Part shown: piece by piece, positions 6,086 to 21,125 of the stretch | How positions within the stretch are numbered: the stretch's first letter is position 1 | How the letters are laid out: every line of letters starts with the position of its first letter | NCBI GenBank assembly: GCA_036338435.1 | Contig: JAYZCG010000037.1 | Coordinates: 6,179-70,178 of the forward strand | Length of the DNA stretch: 64,000 nucleotides | Reading direction: 5' to 3' | Source of the DNA: Acidobacteriota bacterium | GTDB taxonomy: Bacteria; Acidobacteriota; UBA6911; RPQK01; JADFOI01 | Position numbers and translations under genes: made by a program | The notes under the pieces: model-generated | The model's input: the letters and a program-made list of their open reading frames with translations, nothing else | Database searches by the model: none | What the model was told of the DNA's origin: nothing

Positions 6086-6820
6086 ATGCATAAATTTTAT
6101 GGTGGGTTTCTGAAGTCATTGGGCCAAAGGTTCTTGTGCTCAGCTAACCCACTTCATGAGGTCTCCAGCGTACGGTCAACTCTGTTTGTGGTGGGGCTTG
6201 TTTTTATTCCTTCCGGTTGTGCGGTTTCTCCAGAAGTGAGTGAGAGTGTTGATGAATCTGTGATAGTTGAAGAAGAGCTAGATGTTCCGGGTGAACCGCA
6301 TGCTGTTCTAGTAACGGATCGGGGTAATCTTGTAATTCAATTATTGCCAGAGCTAGCACCTAAAACTGTAGAGAACTTTGTAGAACTGGCGGAAACAGGT
6401 TTTTACGCTCGTACCGTATTTCACCGGATAATACCTAACAAAATGGTTCAGGGAGGCGATCCTAATTCCAAGGATAACGATCCTTACAACGACGGTCAGG
6501 GGAATAGTGGAAAATTCCTTAAGGCTGAGTTTAGTTCATACCCTTTTTCTCGCGGAATGGTTGCCATGGCTCGCCAGCCAGGGGATCCCAATTCTTCTAG
6601 TAGTCAATTTTTCATTGTCCTAGAACGTTCTCCCGAGTGGGATGGTGACTACACGATATTCGGAAAGGTGGTTGAGGGGATCGATGTAGCTGATCAGATT
6701 TCAAGAATCCCCTTATCCAATGATGTGAGGTTGCGAGGACGGCCCGCTGTGTCCATCCGTATTAGACGGATCATGATCGAATCTAGAGTAGTTGAGGAAG
6801 AGTCTAAAGAGGCAGAGTAG
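6086..6820 (+). CDS. peptidyl-prolyl cis-trans isomerase, cyclophilin type, secreted
   Basis: N-terminal hydrophobic signal region followed by a cyclophilin core (FHRIIPNKMVQGGDP... MVAMARQPGDPNSSSSQFFIV). The exact start is uncertain. Confidence 0.85.
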   Translation: MHKFYGGFLKSLGQRFLCSANPLHEVSSVRSTLFVVGLVFIPSGCAVSPEVSESVDESVIVEEELDVPGEPHAVLVTDRGNLVIQLLPELAPKTVENFVELAETGFYARTVFHRIIPNKMVQGGDPNSKDNDPYNDGQGNSGKFLKAEFSSYPFSRGMVAMARQPGDPNSSSSQFFIVLERSPEWDGDYTIFGKVVEGIDVADQISRIPLSNDVRLRGRPAVSIRIRRIMIESRVVEEESKEAE

Positions 6821-7653: not shown

Positions 7654-9018
7654 CTATTTTTTCTTCATTAAATACAGCACCCGCTCACTCTCAGCAATGG
7701 GAGCCGATGCTTCAATCGTGAATGTTTCCCGGAACTCCCGTTCAAATCCTTGCTGGGTGTAGTCGGGGAAAATGTCCTCTCGTGTGGACAGGAGTCGCTT
7801 CACCTGGGAGTCGGTCTTGGGAACAAACTCAATAATGAGATGTTTGCAGATTTGTCCCAGGAAGGCTGAGATGTGGGCGAAAGGAAGGTTGTTTGAGATG
7901 GCCAGATGGTGAATGAGGGCCAAGGCCAAAACCGTATCGGCTGGCCCACGCTCGATCAGCGAAGTTCTCTCTTGGTTGCCCCAGCCGATTCCCGGACTCG
8001 GGTTGGTCAAATCGAGCAACAGGGGAAGGATCTCGGTTTCTCCCCGCTTGACGCTTTCCCGGTAATGGTTCTCGACGGCCCACGAATCGATATCGAAGCA
8101 AACAGTCAGGTGATTTCGTTCGGCGGCCAAGCGAGCAAACAATCCCGTATTAGTCCCCAGATCCCAAGCCATTCCCGGCCTGATTCTATCCAGAAACTTA
8201 CCCACCAGCCGCTTCTTCTCCTCCAGGGCTACCGAGGAGTAGTTGGTTGCATCGTAATAGTCGGCCCATTCGGTCGAATCGCCCTTCCATCTCAGCCGTT
8301 TCACGATGGTCTGCAGGTTGTCCACTATTCCGAGAAGAGCGGTGCGGCTGACATGGCGTTTGGTGGGGACTTGCTTGCTGGAGAAGTATTTTTGGCTCTT
8401 GGCATGAAGGTGAATATGAACCCATAGGGAAGGCCTGAGAAGAGTGGTGATGGGCAGCAGGGATCTCGCCAGGTCCAGCGGGACTCCATCGATGTGAATG
8501 CGAAGCAGTTGGCTCAGGCGGATGTCGCGGTAGACCATCAATAGGAGCGGTGCGAGAAAGTGCTGGCAAAACTGTCGGTAGGCTACCCATGGCTCTCCTT
8601 CTAGATATTTTTCAAAAGAAAGCGTGTCGATTAGCAGCGCAGACCCCTCCTTGAACTGAATGTTGTAGGCGCTGCTGTCCTTCAGGGTCATTCCAAAATC
8701 GAGTGCTCGGGCCTGAATTTCGAGGGTCGTTAAGGCTGCCTCCTTCAACTGGCTGAAGCACCACTCATAGGGGTAGGAGATAAAAGGGATCCGCTCGGGT
8801 GCCAGGATCCTATGGAACTCGGAATGATCTTTTTCCAGAGGAATGTCGACTTCCCGGTGAGGAATCAAAAGCTTGCTCTCGACCAGCGCGTCGTATAGCC
8901 CTGAGGACATCAACAGGTCGTAGTGGTCCCCATAAACCGGGTTGACCTGGCGGTAGAGCTGATGATCGCGAGAGAAGAGAAAGCCGCTGGGGTCCCGGAA
9001 AGAGGCCGGAAGTTTCAT
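7654..9018 (-). CDS. two-domain enzyme: N-terminal atypical protein-kinase-like/phosphotransferase-like domain fused to a C-terminal class I SAM-dependent methyltransferase
   Basis: C-terminal MAWDLGTNTGLFARLAA (motif I), VCFDID (motif II) and LALALIHHL are a classical Rossmann methyltransferase. The N-terminal ~290 aa contain LKDSSAYNIQF (D-x4-N catalytic-loop-like) and LLIDTLSFE (DFG/IDxE-like), resembling APH/Kdo-kinase folds. Start placed at MKLPASFRDPSGFLF (9018), which overlaps the upstream small ORF's stop by ATGA. Function is inferred. Confidence 0.6.
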   Translation of the reverse strand: MKLPASFRDPSGFLFSRDHQLYRQVNPVYGDHYDLLMSSGLYDALVESKLLIPHREVDIPLEKDHSEFHRILAPERIPFISYPYEWCFSQLKEAALTTLEIQARALDFGMTLKDSSAYNIQFKEGSALLIDTLSFEKYLEGEPWVAYRQFCQHFLAPLLLMVYRDIRLSQLLRIHIDGVPLDLARSLLPITTLLRPSLWVHIHLHAKSQKYFSSKQVPTKRHVSRTALLGIVDNLQTIVKRLRWKGDSTEWADYYDATNYSSVALEEKKRLVGKFLDRIRPGMAWDLGTNTGLFARLAAERNHLTVCFDIDSWAVENHYRESVKRGETEILPLLLDLTNPSPGIGWGNQERTSLIERGPADTVLALALIHHLAISNNLPFAHISAFLGQICKHLIIEFVPKTDSQVKRLLSTREDIFPDYTQQGFEREFRETFTIEASAPIAESERVLYLMKKK

Positions 9019-9245
9019 GGGTCCTTGTCTTCTGGGCTGGTGGAGAAAAGTGCGGTGAAAAAGAGCTTGATCCTTCTCCAATAGACCTTGATCGCCAGAA
9101 AAAACGCAAAGAAGGCGGCCACCATCGCCTGAACCACCATACTGCCAGTGCCGGGGTCGAGGTAGGCGTGAACGGTGGGGGGATAGAGCACAAAGGTCAC
9201 TCCCAGCAAAAGGACAAGTTTGGTCGAGGTTTTCCAAGCTTTCAT
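9015..9245 (-). CDS. small membrane protein (76 aa), translationally coupled to the downstream kinase-like/methyltransferase gene
   Basis: MKAWKTSTKLVLLLGVTFVLYPPTVHA reads as a signal-peptide/TM-like segment. It is followed by YLDPGTGS, a second hydrophobic helix and a basic WRRIK cluster. AGGAGA lies 11 nt upstream of the ATG. Its stop shares ATGA with the next gene's start. Confidence 0.45.
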   Translation of the reverse strand: MKAWKTSTKLVLLLGVTFVLYPPTVHAYLDPGTGSMVVQAMVAAFFAFFLAIKVYWRRIKLFFTALFSTSPEDKDP

Positions 9246-9729
9246 GGATCGATGCTTCTCCTGTTGCCTGTAATGATTATCCTCTTTTCATGAGAAGTTG
9301 GCAAGCCTCAGACTCCCAGGAAAAAGTGTCATTTGTCCCGGATACTCAGAGCAGAGGAAGGTCAATCTAAACCCGAGACTTTCTCTTTTTGAATGGTCCA
9401 CAAATGTGGGAGCTGGCCATTCACCTGTCCCAAAAGGATGTGCGAGCGACGATTATCTGCACGCTTGGCATCGCGTCTGCATGATCACTATCAGTGGGTG
9501 GCAACGTTCTCTGTTAAGTTCTCCCCATTGCCCTCACATGGATTGTCCACCCACACCCTGTTCATATCCACCGACACTGACTCCACCGCCCATGAAGCGT
9601 TTCTTAACTTCTTTTCTCCCTGACAATACTTCGGTCCAGAGAAGGAAATCCCTGTGCACTCGGCGATGCTGAGTATTCCATAGTTTGCATGCCCCTTGTC
9701 CAACTGATTTTAGTGAGTAGAATGTAGGA

Positions 9730-12700
9730 ATGGGGACGAGACCAAATTTTATCACGCATGCCCTTCACCTCTTCATTCTAGTCGCTTTTGCAATCGCACA
9801 ACCTGTGTTCGACTTACTGTCTAGCAACGCAGAGTTTTTTGTTGCCCGGCAATCTAAACCGATCGACATTATTCTTCTGATCTTGATCGTCTGTCTTCTT
9901 CTCCCTTTACTACTAATTCCTTTAGAGGCAATCGCCGCTCTGGTTGGTCGTCAGTTCCAGAAATGGGTGCACGGTATTTTGGTAGCCCTCCTCCTGGCGG
10001 CAATCTGCCTTCAAATTCTGAAGCTGATTCCGGGTGTGCCCGGTGCTGCACTGGTCATTGGAGCATTGTGTGCAGGCTCAGCAATCTCGGTCGTCTACTC
10101 GAATTTCCATCTTGCTCAGACGTACGTCAGCGTGCTATCGCCCGCTATTTTGATTTTCGCTTCGCTGTTTTTATTGGATTCACAGATTTACAAGATCGTG
10201 TTTGAAGTCCAAGACACGGAGGTCACCTATCCGGACATTGACGCCACTGCTCCTGTGGTCATGATAGTTTTCGACGAATTTCCTCTGATTTCATTGTTAG
10301 ATGAGAACCGTCAGATCGATGGAGTCCGATACCCGAATTTTGCGGCTCTGGCGAGAGAATCGCACTGGTTTAGAAATGCAACTACGGTCAGCGAGGGAAC
10401 CCTAATCTCAATTCCTGCCATGTTAAATGGTCTTTACCCCAATTTTGAAAATCCTCGGTTGCCGATCTTGAGTGACCATCCCCATAACCTCTTCACGTTG
10501 ATGGGTGGTTCCTACGACCTTCACACCCTTGAAAATAGTACGCAATTGTCCCCAGAGAAATCATTCCTCAATCGACAGACGCTGGCCGAACGGATGAGCG
10601 CCCTACTGTCAGACTTGACCATTGTATATCTACATCTTCTCTTGCCAGCGGACTTGGTCAGCGACCTGTCCCGAATCACGGAGTCCTGGAAGGACTTCAG
10701 ATCCCCCAATACGGAGGAGAGGAAGAGGTGGGAGGACTTCGAAACTGACTGGTCAAGACGTCAACTGAAATTCTTGGAGTTTGTCGATTCCATTCATGAT
10801 ACCGGACAGCCCACTTTGCATTTTTTCCACTCCATGCTGCCTCATGCGAGCTGGAAATACCTCCCCAGTGGAAAGCTCTATACGTTATATGAGAGACCAG
10901 GAGTCAAAGGAGTGATCGGACCGAATAATGTAGGCGAAGACGTCAATCGATGGCGGAACGACGACTGGCTTGTTACTCAAGGTCATCAGCGACATCTTCT
11001 TCAGGTTGGTTTCGTGGACAAGCTGCTAGGAGTGTTCGTCTCTAAACTAAAGAAAGCTGGTGTTTATGATTCGTCCCTGATTGTGATCACCGCCGACCAT
11101 GGAGCTAGCTTTCGGGCCAACGATTCACGGAGATCCGTGACCAAGACGAACTACGCCGATATTATGTCGATCCCCCTATTCATTAAGGCGCCTTACCAAA
11201 AGGAAGGGGTAACGAATGATCGCAATGTGGAAACAATCGACATCCTTCCCACAGTCGCTGACGTTCTTGACATTCCTTTTCCGTGGAAGGTCGATGGGCA
11301 TTCAATGCTGGATAACTCTCAGCCGGAAAGAAGGGAGAAGCTTATTTTTTCCGATCGGGGCGAGAAGTTCGCATTCGATGCAAGACTCGAAGTCAAGTAT
11401 GAGAGCCTGAAGAGAAAACTGGTACGTTTTAACTCAGGACCTTGGGATCGACTATTCACAATCGGTCCCTATCCAGACCTGGTTGGAAAGAGGGTTGCAG
11501 AAATAGATGTGTCAGGAACGGCTGGCATGACAGTGGAAGTTAATGGGAAAAGTTTTTTTAATCACGTTGATGTCGACTCCTCGTTTGTCCCTGCTCAGAT
11601 CACAGGCCGAATAGTTTCGAACTCCGATTCCAAGCACTCACTTGACCTAGCGATCTCTGTCAATAACACGATTCGGGCAATTACACGCAGTTCGTCTCAA
11701 TTCGCCGCTGACGAGGAGTTCTCCGCAGTTGTTCCGGAGTCAGCTTTTCGAAGTGGAGAAAACGATGTGGAGGTCTTTGTGGTGATCGACGTGAATGGAA
11801 AACCTTGGCTGGCCAGCACGAAGGAGGCTCCGGAGGTGGAATTCTCAATTTCGTTGTCAGATCAGCTTGGTGAGATGCTGATTTCTTCAAACGGGAAACG
11901 CATACCCGTTAAAGTGAAGGACCTTTCAGGATGGGTTGGGGCCAGGATCGATGATGAGACAGACCGAGTGGAAATACGGGGTTGGGCCGTAGATCAAAAG
12001 CAGTTGAGTGTCCCAAGTGTCATTCTGGTTTTCAGGGATGAAGAGCTTCTCTATTCAGGAAAGACCAGTGTGGCAAGACCTGAAATTGCGACTGAATTCG
12101 GTTCCGAAGCGCTTTTGAATTCGGGATTTCTGTACGAGTTCCCCGTAGAAGAGTTCGACGAGCTTGCCCATACGGAACTCCGAGTTTTCGCGGTGTCCGA
12201 TCGAGATTCCGCTTCAGAATTAGGTCATCCTGAAAAAAACACCTCATTCTGGCCTTTTGGACCCAACCCGGAAGCTTCTGGGAAAGTGTCTCAATATGAT
12301 TGGGATTCAACGATTCGATTTGGCGCTGGTGGAAATGCGCGGCAATATCAGGGTCGTGGTTGGTCTGTTGCGGGGGAGGGGCATACGTGGACTGTTGGAC
12401 CAGAAGCTTCGCTCGTCCTGGCAGCCTCCGAACCTGAGTCTTCCGTGCTCTTGAAGGCCTTGGTGAAAGCCTTCCTAGTGTCGGAACGGCTCAATGAGCA
12501 GAGAGTGCGTGTTTCAGTTAATGGCCAGATGGTGGGGGAGTGGACGATTGCTGGTTCCGAGTTCGAGGAGCGAACAGTCCTTGTGCCTGCGGGACTGCTG
12601 ACCGAACCGGAAAAGACAGTTATTGTGTTCGAGACACCTGACTCGTCCATTCCCGCCCAACTCGGACTTGGTTCTGACAAGCGGAAACTGGGAATTGCCT

Positions 12701-12738
12701 TCCACCAAATCAGTTTAGTTCAACATCAGGACCGCTGA
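9730..12738 (+). CDS. membrane-anchored sulfatase-like (alkaline-phosphatase superfamily) hydrolase/transferase with ~450-aa C-terminal domain of unknown function
   Basis: 1002 aa. About 5 N-terminal TM helices, then a sulfatase-like core (VMIVFDEFP...ITADHGASF). This is the LtaS/OpgB/EptA-type architecture. The C-terminal half (aa ~550-1002) has no family I can name. Divergent from the 9015-9245 operon across a 484-bp intergenic region. Confidence 0.72.
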   Translation: MGTRPNFITHALHLFILVAFAIAQPVFDLLSSNAEFFVARQSKPIDIILLILIVCLLLPLLLIPLEAIAALVGRQFQKWVHGILVALLLAAICLQILKLIPGVPGAALVIGALCAGSAISVVYSNFHLAQTYVSVLSPAILIFASLFLLDSQIYKIVFEVQDTEVTYPDIDATAPVVMIVFDEFPLISLLDENRQIDGVRYPNFAALARESHWFRNATTVSEGTLISIPAMLNGLYPNFENPRLPILSDHPHNLFTLMGGSYDLHTLENSTQLSPEKSFLNRQTLAERMSALLSDLTIVYLHLLLPADLVSDLSRITESWKDFRSPNTEERKRWEDFETDWSRRQLKFLEFVDSIHDTGQPTLHFFHSMLPHASWKYLPSGKLYTLYERPGVKGVIGPNNVGEDVNRWRNDDWLVTQGHQRHLLQVGFVDKLLGVFVSKLKKAGVYDSSLIVITADHGASFRANDSRRSVTKTNYADIMSIPLFIKAPYQKEGVTNDRNVETIDILPTVADVLDIPFPWKVDGHSMLDNSQPERREKLIFSDRGEKFAFDARLEVKYESLKRKLVRFNSGPWDRLFTIGPYPDLVGKRVAEIDVSGTAGMTVEVNGKSFFNHVDVDSSFVPAQITGRIVSNSDSKHSLDLAISVNNTIRAITRSSSQFAADEEFSAVVPESAFRSGENDVEVFVVIDVNGKPWLASTKEAPEVEFSISLSDQLGEMLISSNGKRIPVKVKDLSGWVGARIDDETDRVEIRGWAVDQKQLSVPSVILVFRDEELLYSGKTSVARPEIATEFGSEALLNSGFLYEFPVEEFDELAHTELRVFAVSDRDSASELGHPEKNTSFWPFGPNPEASGKVSQYDWDSTIRFGAGGNARQYQGRGWSVAGEGHTWTVGPEASLVLAASEPESSVLLKALVKAFLVSERLNEQRVRVSVNGQMVGEWTIAGSEFEERTVLVPAGLLTEPEKTVIVFETPDSSIPAQLGLGSDKRKLGIAFHQISLVQHQDR

Positions 12739-19034: not shown

Positions 19035-20012
19035 ATGAAGTCTATCTTGGTTACCGGAGGTGCCGGCTATATTGGTAGCCATACTGTACGCGAACTTGCG
19101 TGCAACGGCTATCGTCCTATCAGTCTCGACAATCTTAGCAAAGGACATGAACGGGCTGTTGTTGCTGGGGATTTGGTTAAGGGTGAGTTAGCAGATGAGG
19201 AATTACTGGAATCGATTTTTCAGAAATATTCGGTAGATGCGGTGATGCACTTTGCTGCGTTGTGTGAAGTGGGCGAGTCAGTTGAGCATCCTCGTCTTTA
19301 CTATGAGCAGAACATGGTTAACTCATTGACCCTTCTACGGGTTATGCTTCGCCATGATGTCCGAAAATTTATTTTGTCGTCTACTTGTGCTACCTATGGG
19401 GATCCTCAACGTATTCCAATCGATGAGCTACACCCTTTACAACCAATCAATCCGTACGGGGCGAGTAAGGTAATGGTTGAAGAGGTGCTCAAGGAATATG
19501 ATAGGGCCTATGGGCTCAGCTTTGTTTCTTTGCGCTACTTCAATGCGGCCGGAGCCAGTCTGGATGCAAGGTTAGGTGAGTCCCATAATCCCGAAACTCA
19601 TTTGATTCCACGGATTCTGAAAGTAGCAACAGGCGAGCTGGCAATGGTTCAGGTGTTCGGCAATGACTACCCGACTGTAGATGGAACTTGTATTCGAGAT
19701 TATGTCCATGTTCTGGATCTGGCTTCCGGACATGTGGCTGCATATCAGTGGCTGTGTGAGGGAGGAGATAGCGAAGTCTTTAATCTGGGTACAGGCCAGG
19801 GGTGCAGTGTGATGGAACTTGTTGAGGATGTACGTCAGCTTACCGGTCGGAAGATCTCATTGGAAGTGTCTGGTCGTCGGTTGGGGGACCCTCCTTGTCT
19901 GGTGGCCAATTCCGACAAGGCACACCAAATATTAAAATGGAGACCTGAACACTCGGACATAGAGACAATACTTTCCACAGCTTGGGCTTGGGAACAGGAC
20001 AGAAAGTATTAG
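19035..20012 (+). CDS. galE: UDP-glucose 4-epimerase
   Basis: VTGGAGYIGSH NAD-binding motif, YxxxK, and 325 aa with the GalE-like C-terminus. Confidence 0.85.
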   Translation: MKSILVTGGAGYIGSHTVRELACNGYRPISLDNLSKGHERAVVAGDLVKGELADEELLESIFQKYSVDAVMHFAALCEVGESVEHPRLYYEQNMVNSLTLLRVMLRHDVRKFILSSTCATYGDPQRIPIDELHPLQPINPYGASKVMVEEVLKEYDRAYGLSFVSLRYFNAAGASLDARLGESHNPETHLIPRILKVATGELAMVQVFGNDYPTVDGTCIRDYVHVLDLASGHVAAYQWLCEGGDSEVFNLGTGQGCSVMELVEDVRQLTGRKISLEVSGRRLGDPPCLVANSDKAHQILKWRPEHSDIETILSTAWAWEQDRKY

Positions 20013-20192
20013 ATAGTGAACGTGAAGCTAGCAACAGATCCAAACAAAGAATCTACAACCGGCGTTGTGGAAATCAATGCAGATCACAATTATAGTATTT
20101 AAACATGTAAAGTAGCACAATAGGCAGGAGGTTATGCGGTCAGTCTGGGTGAATTTTAAAATTAGACTCCTGGTTTCTTTTGTTGAGATGTT

Positions 20193-21125
20193 ATGCGTAT
20201 TTTAGTAACGGGTGGAGCCGGCTTCATTGGTAGCCACCTATGTAAGTCTTTTATCGAACAGGGCCACGAGGTTTTGTGTCTCGACAACCTCTTTTCCGGA
20301 TCCAAAATCAATGTCCAGTCCTTCTTAGACCATGCGTCTTTTGAGTTTGTCCGTCATGACATTATTGAGCCGATTCTCCTAGAAGTTGAGCGTATCTACA
20401 ATCTAGCGTGTCCTGCATCGCCCGTCCATTATCAGTACAATCCGGTTAAGACGGTCAAAGCTAATGTTATAGGTACCATAAATATGCTCGGCATGGCCAA
20501 GCGGGTTAAGGCTCGTATTCTTCAAGCCAGCACGTCGGAAGTTTATGGAGATCCGCAGGTGCAACCTCAACGGGAAAGTTATTGGGGAAATGTTAATCCT
20601 ATCGGATTACGCAGTTGTTATGACGAAGGGAAACGGGTCGCTGAGACTTTAATGATGGATTATCATCGGCAGAATCAGGTAGACATCCGAATAGCACGAA
20701 TCTTCAACACCTATGGCCCGCAAATGTCGATTAATGATGGCCGGGTTGTCAGCAACCTCATTGTACAGTCTCTTCAGGGTAAACCGCTTACTATCTACGG
20801 AGATGGCTCCCAAACACGCTCTTTTTGCTATGTCTCTGACATGGTTCTGGCATTGGAGCAATTGATGGCCTGCGATGGTGTACACCATCCCGTCAATTTG
20901 GGTAATCCTGCAGAATCAACAATCCTATCTTTGGCTGAACTGATTTGTGAATTAACAGGTACCCGGTCGGACATCCAGTTCAAGCCTCTTCCAGAAGATG
21001 ATCCCGTGCGACGTAGGCCTGACATTTCTGAAGCGCACAAGCTACTGGGATGGAAACCGGAGGTCGACCTGAAGACAGGGTTATGCAGGACAATCGAGTA
21101 TTTTGACAATCTTTTGCGAGAGTAA
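20193..21125 (+). CDS. uxs: UDP-glucuronate decarboxylase (UDP-xylose synthase) family SDR
   Basis: [15 protein letters not shown]... [17 protein letters not shown]... [11 protein letters not shown] is nearly identical to the UXS consensus. Confidence 0.88.

Follow-up and report, generated by a model that had tools for sequence, protein, structure and literature searches.

The noeA and noeB genes of Sinorhizobium meliloti are host-range nodulation genes (Ardourel et al. 1995, as cited in PMC9758233 and PMC4053727) that have stood without a biochemical function since 1995. NoeA and its homologue Lani_1194 of Legionella anisa are atypical kinase/class I methyltransferase fusions, in which an arginine takes the place of the catalytic lysine and the Asp, Asn and Asp residues of the kinase site are retained, and whose methyltransferase domain models on phosphoethanolamine N-methyltransferase (PMC9758233; Sci Rep 2022, 12:21782). 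The same study counts homologues in about 1,200 species and 12 archaea. Of the neighbourhoods, 65% contain a conserved small hypothetical gene (Lani_1193) and 38% a gene for a protein of the alkaline phosphatase fold (Lani_1195, corresponding to NoeB; HHpred points to EptA, FFAS to YejM) (PMC9758233). That study treats the proteins as possible secreted effectors, and our literature search found no functional paper on NoeA or NoeB later than it. Here we describe a three-gene locus in a 64,000-nt stretch of Acidobacteriota DNA (the window, to which all coordinates and strands refer) that, judged by its protein sequences, is almost certainly a copy of this known cassette of small peptide, NoeA and NoeB. 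It encodes a small membrane peptide of 76 amino acids (aa; 9015..9245, - strand), a NoeA-like protein of 454 aa (7654..9018, - strand, with ATG at 9018 and stop at 7654) and a long-form NoeB-like protein of 1002 aa (9730..12738, + strand).

The 454-aa protein gives a full-length match to the ‘nodulation protein NoeA’ of S. meliloti and S. medicae in a tblastn search of annotated plasmids (34% identity, 100% coverage, E ~1e-58, on the pSymA and pSMED plasmids), and is 58% identical to the product of a gene on the Singulisphaera plasmid pSINAC01, whose neighbour is annotated as ‘LTA synthase family protein’. On pSymA the order is nodL, a hypothetical gene for 71 aa (orf71), noeA and noeB; as in the window, three proteins stand in a row and the catalytic residues of NoeA are kept. 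The 71-aa product, AHAYLDPGTGSM, begins MPIIMSVVGFLILSIVPAHAYLDPGTGSMLVQ and has AHA directly before YLDPGTGSM, the same motif as in the window peptide. S. meliloti NoeB (553 aa; Pfam Sulfatase, 2e-10) shares with its window counterpart a multi-transmembrane (TM) anchor, a Pfam Sulfatase domain and a threonine nucleophile. The S. meliloti genes, however, are co-directional behind a nod box with nodL and encode the short form of NoeB, whereas the window has a divergent NoeB gene whose 1002-aa product carries three extra beta-sandwich domains, and has no acetyltransferase; nor does the rhizobial and plant context of the S. meliloti cassette apply to it. The Lani_1193-Lani_1195 cluster resembles the window in its small protein upstream, its kinase/methyltransferase fusion and its EptA/YejM-like neighbour, and the Legionella family, like NoeA here, is spread over many phyla and some archaea. 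Linkage in our sample of a cosmopolitan clade is higher than the neighbour frequencies of PMC9758233, beyond which the peptide motif, the NoeB catalytic residues, the split of NoeB into long and short forms and the absent phylum signal are new.

An earlier note on this DNA had seen in these genes a surface-decorating system with no described equivalent. The second half of that proposal was wrong, since the family had already been described in PMC9758233, through both the S. meliloti noeA-noeB unit and the Lani_1193-Lani_1195 cluster; the decorating role itself is plausible, and the module probably relates to the cell envelope or to secreted molecules. The interpretation was thus partly supported. 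The window cassette is a divergent, long-NoeB arrangement of a known cassette, and as an instance it is ordinary.

The grouping of the three genes into one module, also proposed in the earlier note, is well borne out by homologous loci. In about 69 of 85 loci the peptide gene immediately precedes noeA, and in 51 (first clustering) noeA is directly followed by a gene for a NoeB-type membrane protein of the alkaline phosphatase fold. Clustering of the neighbours gives 49 loci with a short NoeB (~510-540 aa) and 10 with a long one of the window type (700-1001 aa), the latter being co-operonic with peptide and NoeA in L003, L172, L173, L014 and others; the two forms fall in one BLAST cluster and share their catalytic columns. 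A fourth conserved gene is absent: upstream neighbours are heterogeneous (largest Pfam count, 6 of 125), and the sole further neighbour cluster comprises glycosyltransferase-like genes in 10 loci. One Chloroflexi metagenome-assembled genome (MAG; L010:6001-11413) has, after the peptide and NoeA genes, one gene for a long NoeB (825 aa) and one for a short NoeB in tandem, so the two forms are not simple alternatives.

NoeA has more than 8000 matches in a 90%-clustered database, mostly ~62-66% identical whatever their source (including Chloroflexi, Planctomycetes, Eisenbacteria and an Aenigmarchaeota MAG), and a profile search of 1.84 billion representatives returns 2605 clusters at 50% identity (E<=1e-30). 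Carriers number at least 586 species genomes, counted at one genome per species, in more than 20 phyla, archaea included, with Methanomicrobia, Methanobacteriota, Parcubacteria, Chlamydiota, Bacillota and Actinomycetota among them. The cassette is among the more widely transferred small gene modules of uncultured anaerobic bacteria and archaea, with NoeA ~60% identical across phyla.

In the window, the peptide and NoeA-like genes form one unit. The letters tcat at 9015-9018 of the + strand read ATGA on the - strand, where the peptide gene's stop codon shares letters with the start codon of the NoeA-like gene, an arrangement that indicates translational coupling of the two; in most other loci the gap between peptide and NoeA is -5 to about +25 nt. 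The mechanical open reading frame (ORF) of the NoeA-like gene extends to a TTG at 9237, and its homologues all begin at the MKLPASFRDPSG position. Unlike in the co-directional cassette, the NoeB gene is reversed, which yields two divergent units separated by a 484-bp intergenic region (9246..9729). Promoter-like sites point both ways from this spacer: on the - strand a -35/-10-like match of 10/12 (9304-9276, ~30 nt ahead of the ATG of the peptide gene), and on the + strand a match of 9/12 (9696-9723). An Rfam search of the spacer found no RNA element. The sequence thus contains all three ORFs, the overlap, the spacer and the domains called in the earlier note. Most of the spacer is also occupied by a 124-aa ORF on the + strand (9298-9672, TTG start), which has no Pfam match and is probably not a gene.

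The NoeA-like protein consists of a protein-kinase-like fold (aa ~1-215; 8374..9018, - strand) followed by a class I fold dependent on S-adenosylmethionine (SAM; methyltransferase domain, aa ~262-454; 7657..8235, - strand). Across the family (77 members, S. meliloti NoeA included) the kinase residues R23, D114-x4-N119 (LKDSSAYN) and D131 (IDTLSF) are invariant, as are SAM motif I (D286-x-G-x-N-x-G292) and D309/D311; in the window, the segment L-K-D114-S-S-A-Y-N119 ... I-D131-T-L-S-F is encoded at 8626-8679 on the - strand. The replacement of the catalytic lysine by R23 makes this an atypical kinase site of the kind described in PMC9758233. Neither a TM or hydrophobic segment in the hydropathy profile nor a coiled coil in the secondary structure of the model was found. 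The invariant catalytic residues and the lack of a hydrophobic segment suggest that the protein is a soluble, bifunctional enzyme and probably active. In an AlphaFold model built from 30 homologues, the N-terminal 160 residues have predicted local distance difference test (pLDDT) values of 80-96. Hidden Markov model searches with Pfam and NCBIfam give no above-threshold family for this protein (methyltransferase matches are sub-threshold only) or for the 76-aa peptide, and a PDB sequence search with the 454-aa protein finds no relative.

A described enzyme that joins a kinase-fold and a class I methyltransferase domain in one polypeptide is WbdD of Escherichia coli O9a, which acts at the cytoplasmic face of the membrane and makes a methyl-phosphate on the end of a glycan (PMC3482155). 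By this comparison, which is also made in PMC9758233, NoeA could be a chain terminator that adds first a phosphate and then a methyl group to a lipid-linked glycan at its non-reducing end, with NoeB separate or irrelevant. Genes for glycosyltransferases, nucleoside triphosphate (NTP) transferases and Wzy_C proteins near some loci are consistent with such a role, as are STT3/AglB and sugar genes adjoining the Dehalococcoidia copies; glycosyltransferases, NTP-transferases and epimerases are mildly enriched near cassette loci overall, and epimerases occur near 7-10 of 92. WbdD, however, has the opposite domain order (methyltransferase, then kinase), a coiled-coil ruler, and WbdA and an ABC transporter as partners. 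NoeA has the reverse order and no ruler, the cassette has neither an ABC transporter nor a polymerising glycosyltransferase as a conserved companion, and sequence searches detected no relationship between NoeA and WbdD. The cassette also occurs in bacteria of the candidate phyla radiation, in methanogens and in housekeeping contexts such as the window. A chain-terminating NoeA is on this evidence rather improbable.

The methyltransferase motif IV bears on the same point. It reads N-P-S-P (aa 339-342; 8001-8012, - strand), is kept in 75-76 of the 77 members, and recalls the (N/D)PP(Y/F) motif of amino-group N-methyltransferases. This resemblance would favour an N-methylation target over phosphate O-methylation, and speaks against a NoeA that caps glycans with methyl-phosphate.

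The 76-aa peptide has an N-terminus like that of a signal peptide (aa 1-27), ending in VHA just before Y28, followed by a Y-L-D-P-G-T-G-S motif at the predicted mature N-terminus (aa 28-35; 9141..9164, - strand), one TM helix (aa ~36-55) and a basic tail that is predicted to be cytoplasmic. The motif occurs once in the window. Across loci the consensus comprises a signal peptide, A-x-A directly before Y[LI]DPG[TS]GS, a TM helix and a basic amphipathic tail. Thirty diverse peptides share Y1, D3, G5, G7, S8 and Q12 without exception. By its predicted topology, the peptide is a bitopic membrane protein with an exposed, invariant N-terminal motif of eight residues. A search with a profile of the mature peptide found 3944 small proteins without a Pfam domain (52-93 aa in the top 120).

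The NoeB-like protein begins with a membrane domain (aa 1-158; 9730..10203, + strand) for which the model gives about 5 TM helices (aa 4-157). It continues with a catalytic domain of the alkaline phosphatase fold (aa ~170-580; 10237..11469, + strand), containing the Pfam Sulfatase match (PF00884, aa 201-515, E 4e-21), and ends with three beta-sandwich domains (aa ~590-700, 705-835 and 855-1002; 11497..12735, + strand). The structure model has a pLDDT of 85, and its C-terminal domains are all-beta with values of 80-93. As the earlier note had observed, the large C-terminal region is unassigned: beyond aa ~535 no Pfam family scores above threshold (CBM60 is sub-threshold, E 0.099), and a PDB sequence search with the beta domains gave no match. 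These domains are kept in six long-form homologues and missing from the short NoeB forms. Past the last TM helix comes an acidic linker (0 K/R, 5 D/E), which fits an outward-facing catalytic domain in the predicted topology. A search with the whole protein gives 2381 homologues; NCBI names an identical protein ‘sulfatase-like hydrolase/transferase [Acidobacteriota bacterium]’.

That name, and the ‘sulfatase-like’ of the earlier note, hold for the fold and not for the active site. In an alignment of 78 long- and short-form family members, the column of the predicted nucleophile T224 (codon at 10399-10401, + strand) holds 71 T and 5 S. The column lies in what we take to be exact register with the formylglycine Cys of the PF00884 sulfatase consensus. 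The window has T224-L-I-S-I, and the family members shown all lack Pro at +2 and Arg at +4, so that no C/S-x-P-x-R is found. The metal-ligand columns are conserved: D182 (74 D, 4 E), D456 (78/78), H457 (69 H, 8 E) and H372 (77/78). With Thr at the nucleophile position and no C/S-x-P-x-R, the 1002-aa protein appears to be sulfatase-like in fold only and is probably a phosphotransferase or phosphodiesterase; the predicted active site and architecture are those of membrane phospho-group transferases. Sequence likeness to described enzymes of this kind (EptA/MCR-1/EptC, LtaS/LtaP, OpgB, BcsG, PbgA (YejM) and GacH) is limited to the DHG region, and none of the EptA, LtaS, OpgB, BcsG, PbgA or GacH enzymes has the three C-terminal beta-sandwich domains.

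The protein could nonetheless be a genuine sulfatase, or another catabolic hydrolase for sulfated polymers, with the two divergent units being unrelated neighbours. Its Pfam domain would agree with this, S1 sulfatases are the best structural matches of the model (slightly above EptA-type transferases), and the gene has a promoter-like site to itself, lies on the other strand and is nearer the host in composition; close homologues also occur alone (L002, L170/L171). We nevertheless regard it as quite improbable. A Thr or Ser occupies the nucleophile position in 76 of 78 members, the N-terminal 5-TM anchor is like that of LtaS, EptA and PbgA, no anSME or FGE maturase is seen nearby, and in the loci listed above (L003, L172, L173, L014 and others) the long form shares an operon with peptide and NoeA.

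The reading of NoeB as a membrane phospho-group transferase leads to a mechanism in which the three proteins would act jointly across the membrane and an acceptor outside the cytoplasm would receive a phospho-substituent. NoeA would work on the cytoplasmic side, where a phospho-donor or acceptor bound to the membrane would be made, modified or recycled at the expense of ATP and SAM, perhaps by phosphorylation followed by methylation (as in WbdD), by methylation of a phospholipid head group, or by re-phosphorylation of leftover lipid. The peptide would hold NoeA at the membrane through its basic tail, tethering NoeA, docking into NoeB, or both. On the outer face, NoeB would transfer the phospho-substituent via a phospho-Thr intermediate to a glycan, lipid or protein, in a manner resembling that of EptA, LtaS, OpgB or BcsG acting on phospholipid head groups. 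In the long form, the presence of three beta-sandwich domains, which would probably bind the acceptor, suggests that this is a polymer. WbdD sets a precedent for a kinase-methyltransferase in which phosphorylation precedes methylation (PMC3482155). The predicted compartment pattern combines a NoeA free of TM segments, a NoeB with ~5 TM helices and an acidic linker, and a peptide made up of signal peptide, motif, TM helix and basic tail. Taken whole, an acquired peptide-NoeA-NoeB cassette serving as a phospho-decoration machine is the explanation towards which we incline, by a small measure; the two-compartment mechanism as drawn is tentative, and we would sooner expect it to need replacing than to stand.

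Several points weigh against this explanation. No biochemical activity is reported for any NoeA or NoeB in PMC9758233, which leaves both function and site of action open. The match between the 1002-aa protein and S. meliloti NoeB is weak (BLASTP E 7e-4 over 140 aa, 21% identity), and an hhalign comparison of the NoeB profile with E. coli EptA aligned the DHG motif alone, so the nucleophile could not be placed against EptA directly. The register of Thr with the sulfatase Cys relies on the general sulfatase consensus, the topologies of all three proteins are predictions, and overall confidence in the NoeA model is moderate (pLDDT 65). The peptide is more tightly linked to NoeA than to NoeB, and loci L001 and L076-L079 have peptide and NoeA without NoeB, which may therefore not be obligatory. 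In the window, NoeB has a separate transcription unit and a composition closer to that of the host; the units may thus not have arrived together.

The peptide itself could be the substrate, its YLDPGTGS stub (Ser8, Tyr1) being phospho-modified by NoeB outside the membrane. The stub could then also serve as anchor or primer for a phospho-polymer, with NoeA acting on the tail or preparing the donor. Protein Ser/Thr acceptors are established for enzymes of the EptC/PptA type (pilin, FlgG). The near-invariance of the 8-residue ectodomain across phyla, set against a variable signal peptide and tail, would be in keeping with a substrate, as would the translational coupling with NoeA, the frequent FS[KR] motif in the tail, and the few peptides that begin directly with M-YLDPGTGS (such as that of L042). 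Yet the peptide is also present where no NoeB is nearby (L001, L076-L079), motif position 6 may be Ala (L025), and NoeB might just as well use the stub for docking. We consider a substrate role for the peptide unlikely. The fuller version, in which the peptide would be a genetically encoded, membrane-anchored acceptor whose stub is phospho-modified or polymer-extended by NoeB outside while NoeA prepares or recycles the donor inside, seems to us slightly more doubtful again; if true, it would amount to a peptide-anchored counterpart of lipoteichoic acid and phosphoethanolamine decoration, common to bacteria and archaea and spread horizontally.

The cassette is accessory and horizontally acquired, as the earlier note had proposed, and is no classical mobile island. 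In the window, composition and missing synteny alone point to acquisition. The enrichment in GC that had been judged by eye is confirmed for the 454-aa gene (GC 0.537, z 3.5; GC at third codon positions, GC3, 0.624, z 4.3, the highest GC3 of 62 window ORFs) and is mild for the 1002-aa gene (GC3 0.522, z 1.6). The trio is not a conserved companion of grpE: GrpE, the MltD-like protein, AroK and AroA were found near NoeA or NoeB homologues in 0 of 92 loci. A GrpE-based synteny search in metagenomes gave one usable relative (L089, GrpE 53% identical), which lacks the cassette; its gene order agrees with that of the window between dxr and grpE, after which a ClpB-like gene stands where the window has the cassette and the mltD side. 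Homologues elsewhere occupy varied chromosomal contexts, plasmids and contigs rich in insertion sequences. The closest NoeA (84% identity, L001) lies with its peptide, and with no visible NoeB, between genes for an FAD enzyme and adenosine deaminase, and a divergent NoeA clade (32% identity; L003, L172, L173) occupies a fixed site between SerS/NTP-transferase and FBPase genes in one lineage. Among the 73 sequences with a phylum label out of the 80 best NoeA hits, labels that errors in MAG binning can affect, mean identity is 0.608 within phyla versus 0.596 between them, and the nearest neighbour belongs to a different phylum for 47 of 73; this absence of a phylum signal points to frequent transfer under strong constraint.

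Within the window, the peptide-NoeA unit seems to have arrived more recently, and the divergent long NoeB may have a history of its own. A classical genomic island or mobile element was considered and rejected: the window has no tRNA, no border repeats (flanking direct repeats) and no integrase or transposase among the ORFs at 5-16 kb. Besides the solitary long-form gene of L002, two contigs of ~49 kb carry a window-type long NoeB (44% identical) without NoeA (L170:5001-8027 and L171:4226-7252); both are dense in integrase, resolvase, IS1595, Tn3 and DDE transposase genes, and one may be circular. Their content suggests that the long NoeB gene also moves alone.

The cassette's patchy, horizontally transferred distribution, and a surface likeness of its three activities to those of PglW, PglX and PglZ, might recall an anti-phage defence module of the Pgl/BREX type. 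We find this hardly credible, and rejected it: PADLOC yields no significant match for any of the three proteins (for NoeA, mad2 with 14 bits and E 0.0032; for the others, no hit). NoeB is polytopic with a domain predicted to be extracytoplasmic, there is no ATPase partner, the methyltransferase is a small class I domain without the architecture of a DNA methyltransferase, and no copy of the cassette was found in phage collections.

By itself the window adds little: it shows the cassette among ordinary housekeeping genes and with a long NoeB that bears three putative binding domains. The invariant peptide stub, the Thr-type active site and the long NoeB nevertheless lead to concrete, testable hypotheses. 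The chemistry, once solved, would explain both a rhizobial host-range determinant and the Legionella cluster, and might reveal a general modification of the envelope.

The housekeeping surroundings described in the earlier note are confirmed by Pfam, which identifies GrpE, a lytic transglycosylase with SLT and LysM domains, AroK, AroA and UvrB in the flanks, and Dxr far to the left. Two genes for NAD-dependent epimerases/dehydratases lie at 19035-21125; the suggestion that these (as galE and uxs) supply the locus with nucleotide sugars is weakened by the four unrelated genes in between and by the low frequency of such epimerases near homologous loci, given above. In L089, two DUF7450 repeat proteins are encoded between grpE and ruvC (L089:10750-11560), where the window has a cyclophilin gene (6086-6820).

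The homologous loci show some further variation. In five loci from Anaerolineae/Chloroflexia (L056, L068, L076, L077, L079), NoeB is replaced after NoeA by a conserved membrane protein of ~330 aa without a Pfam hit (for example L076:7435-8424), and the accompanying peptides have no signal peptide and acidic tails. A group II intron reverse transcriptase (RVT_1 and GIIM; L172:1760-3157) is encoded immediately upstream of one peptide gene, as an insertion in the lineage whose cassette otherwise keeps its fixed chromosomal position. In Dehalococcoidia, an STT3/AglB-type oligosaccharyltransferase gene stands directly upstream of the cassette (L004:4967-7135, L005:4993-7446), and a nucleotide-sugar block follows downstream, with genes for UDP-glucose dehydrogenase, an aminotransferase, an acetyltransferase and an epimerase.

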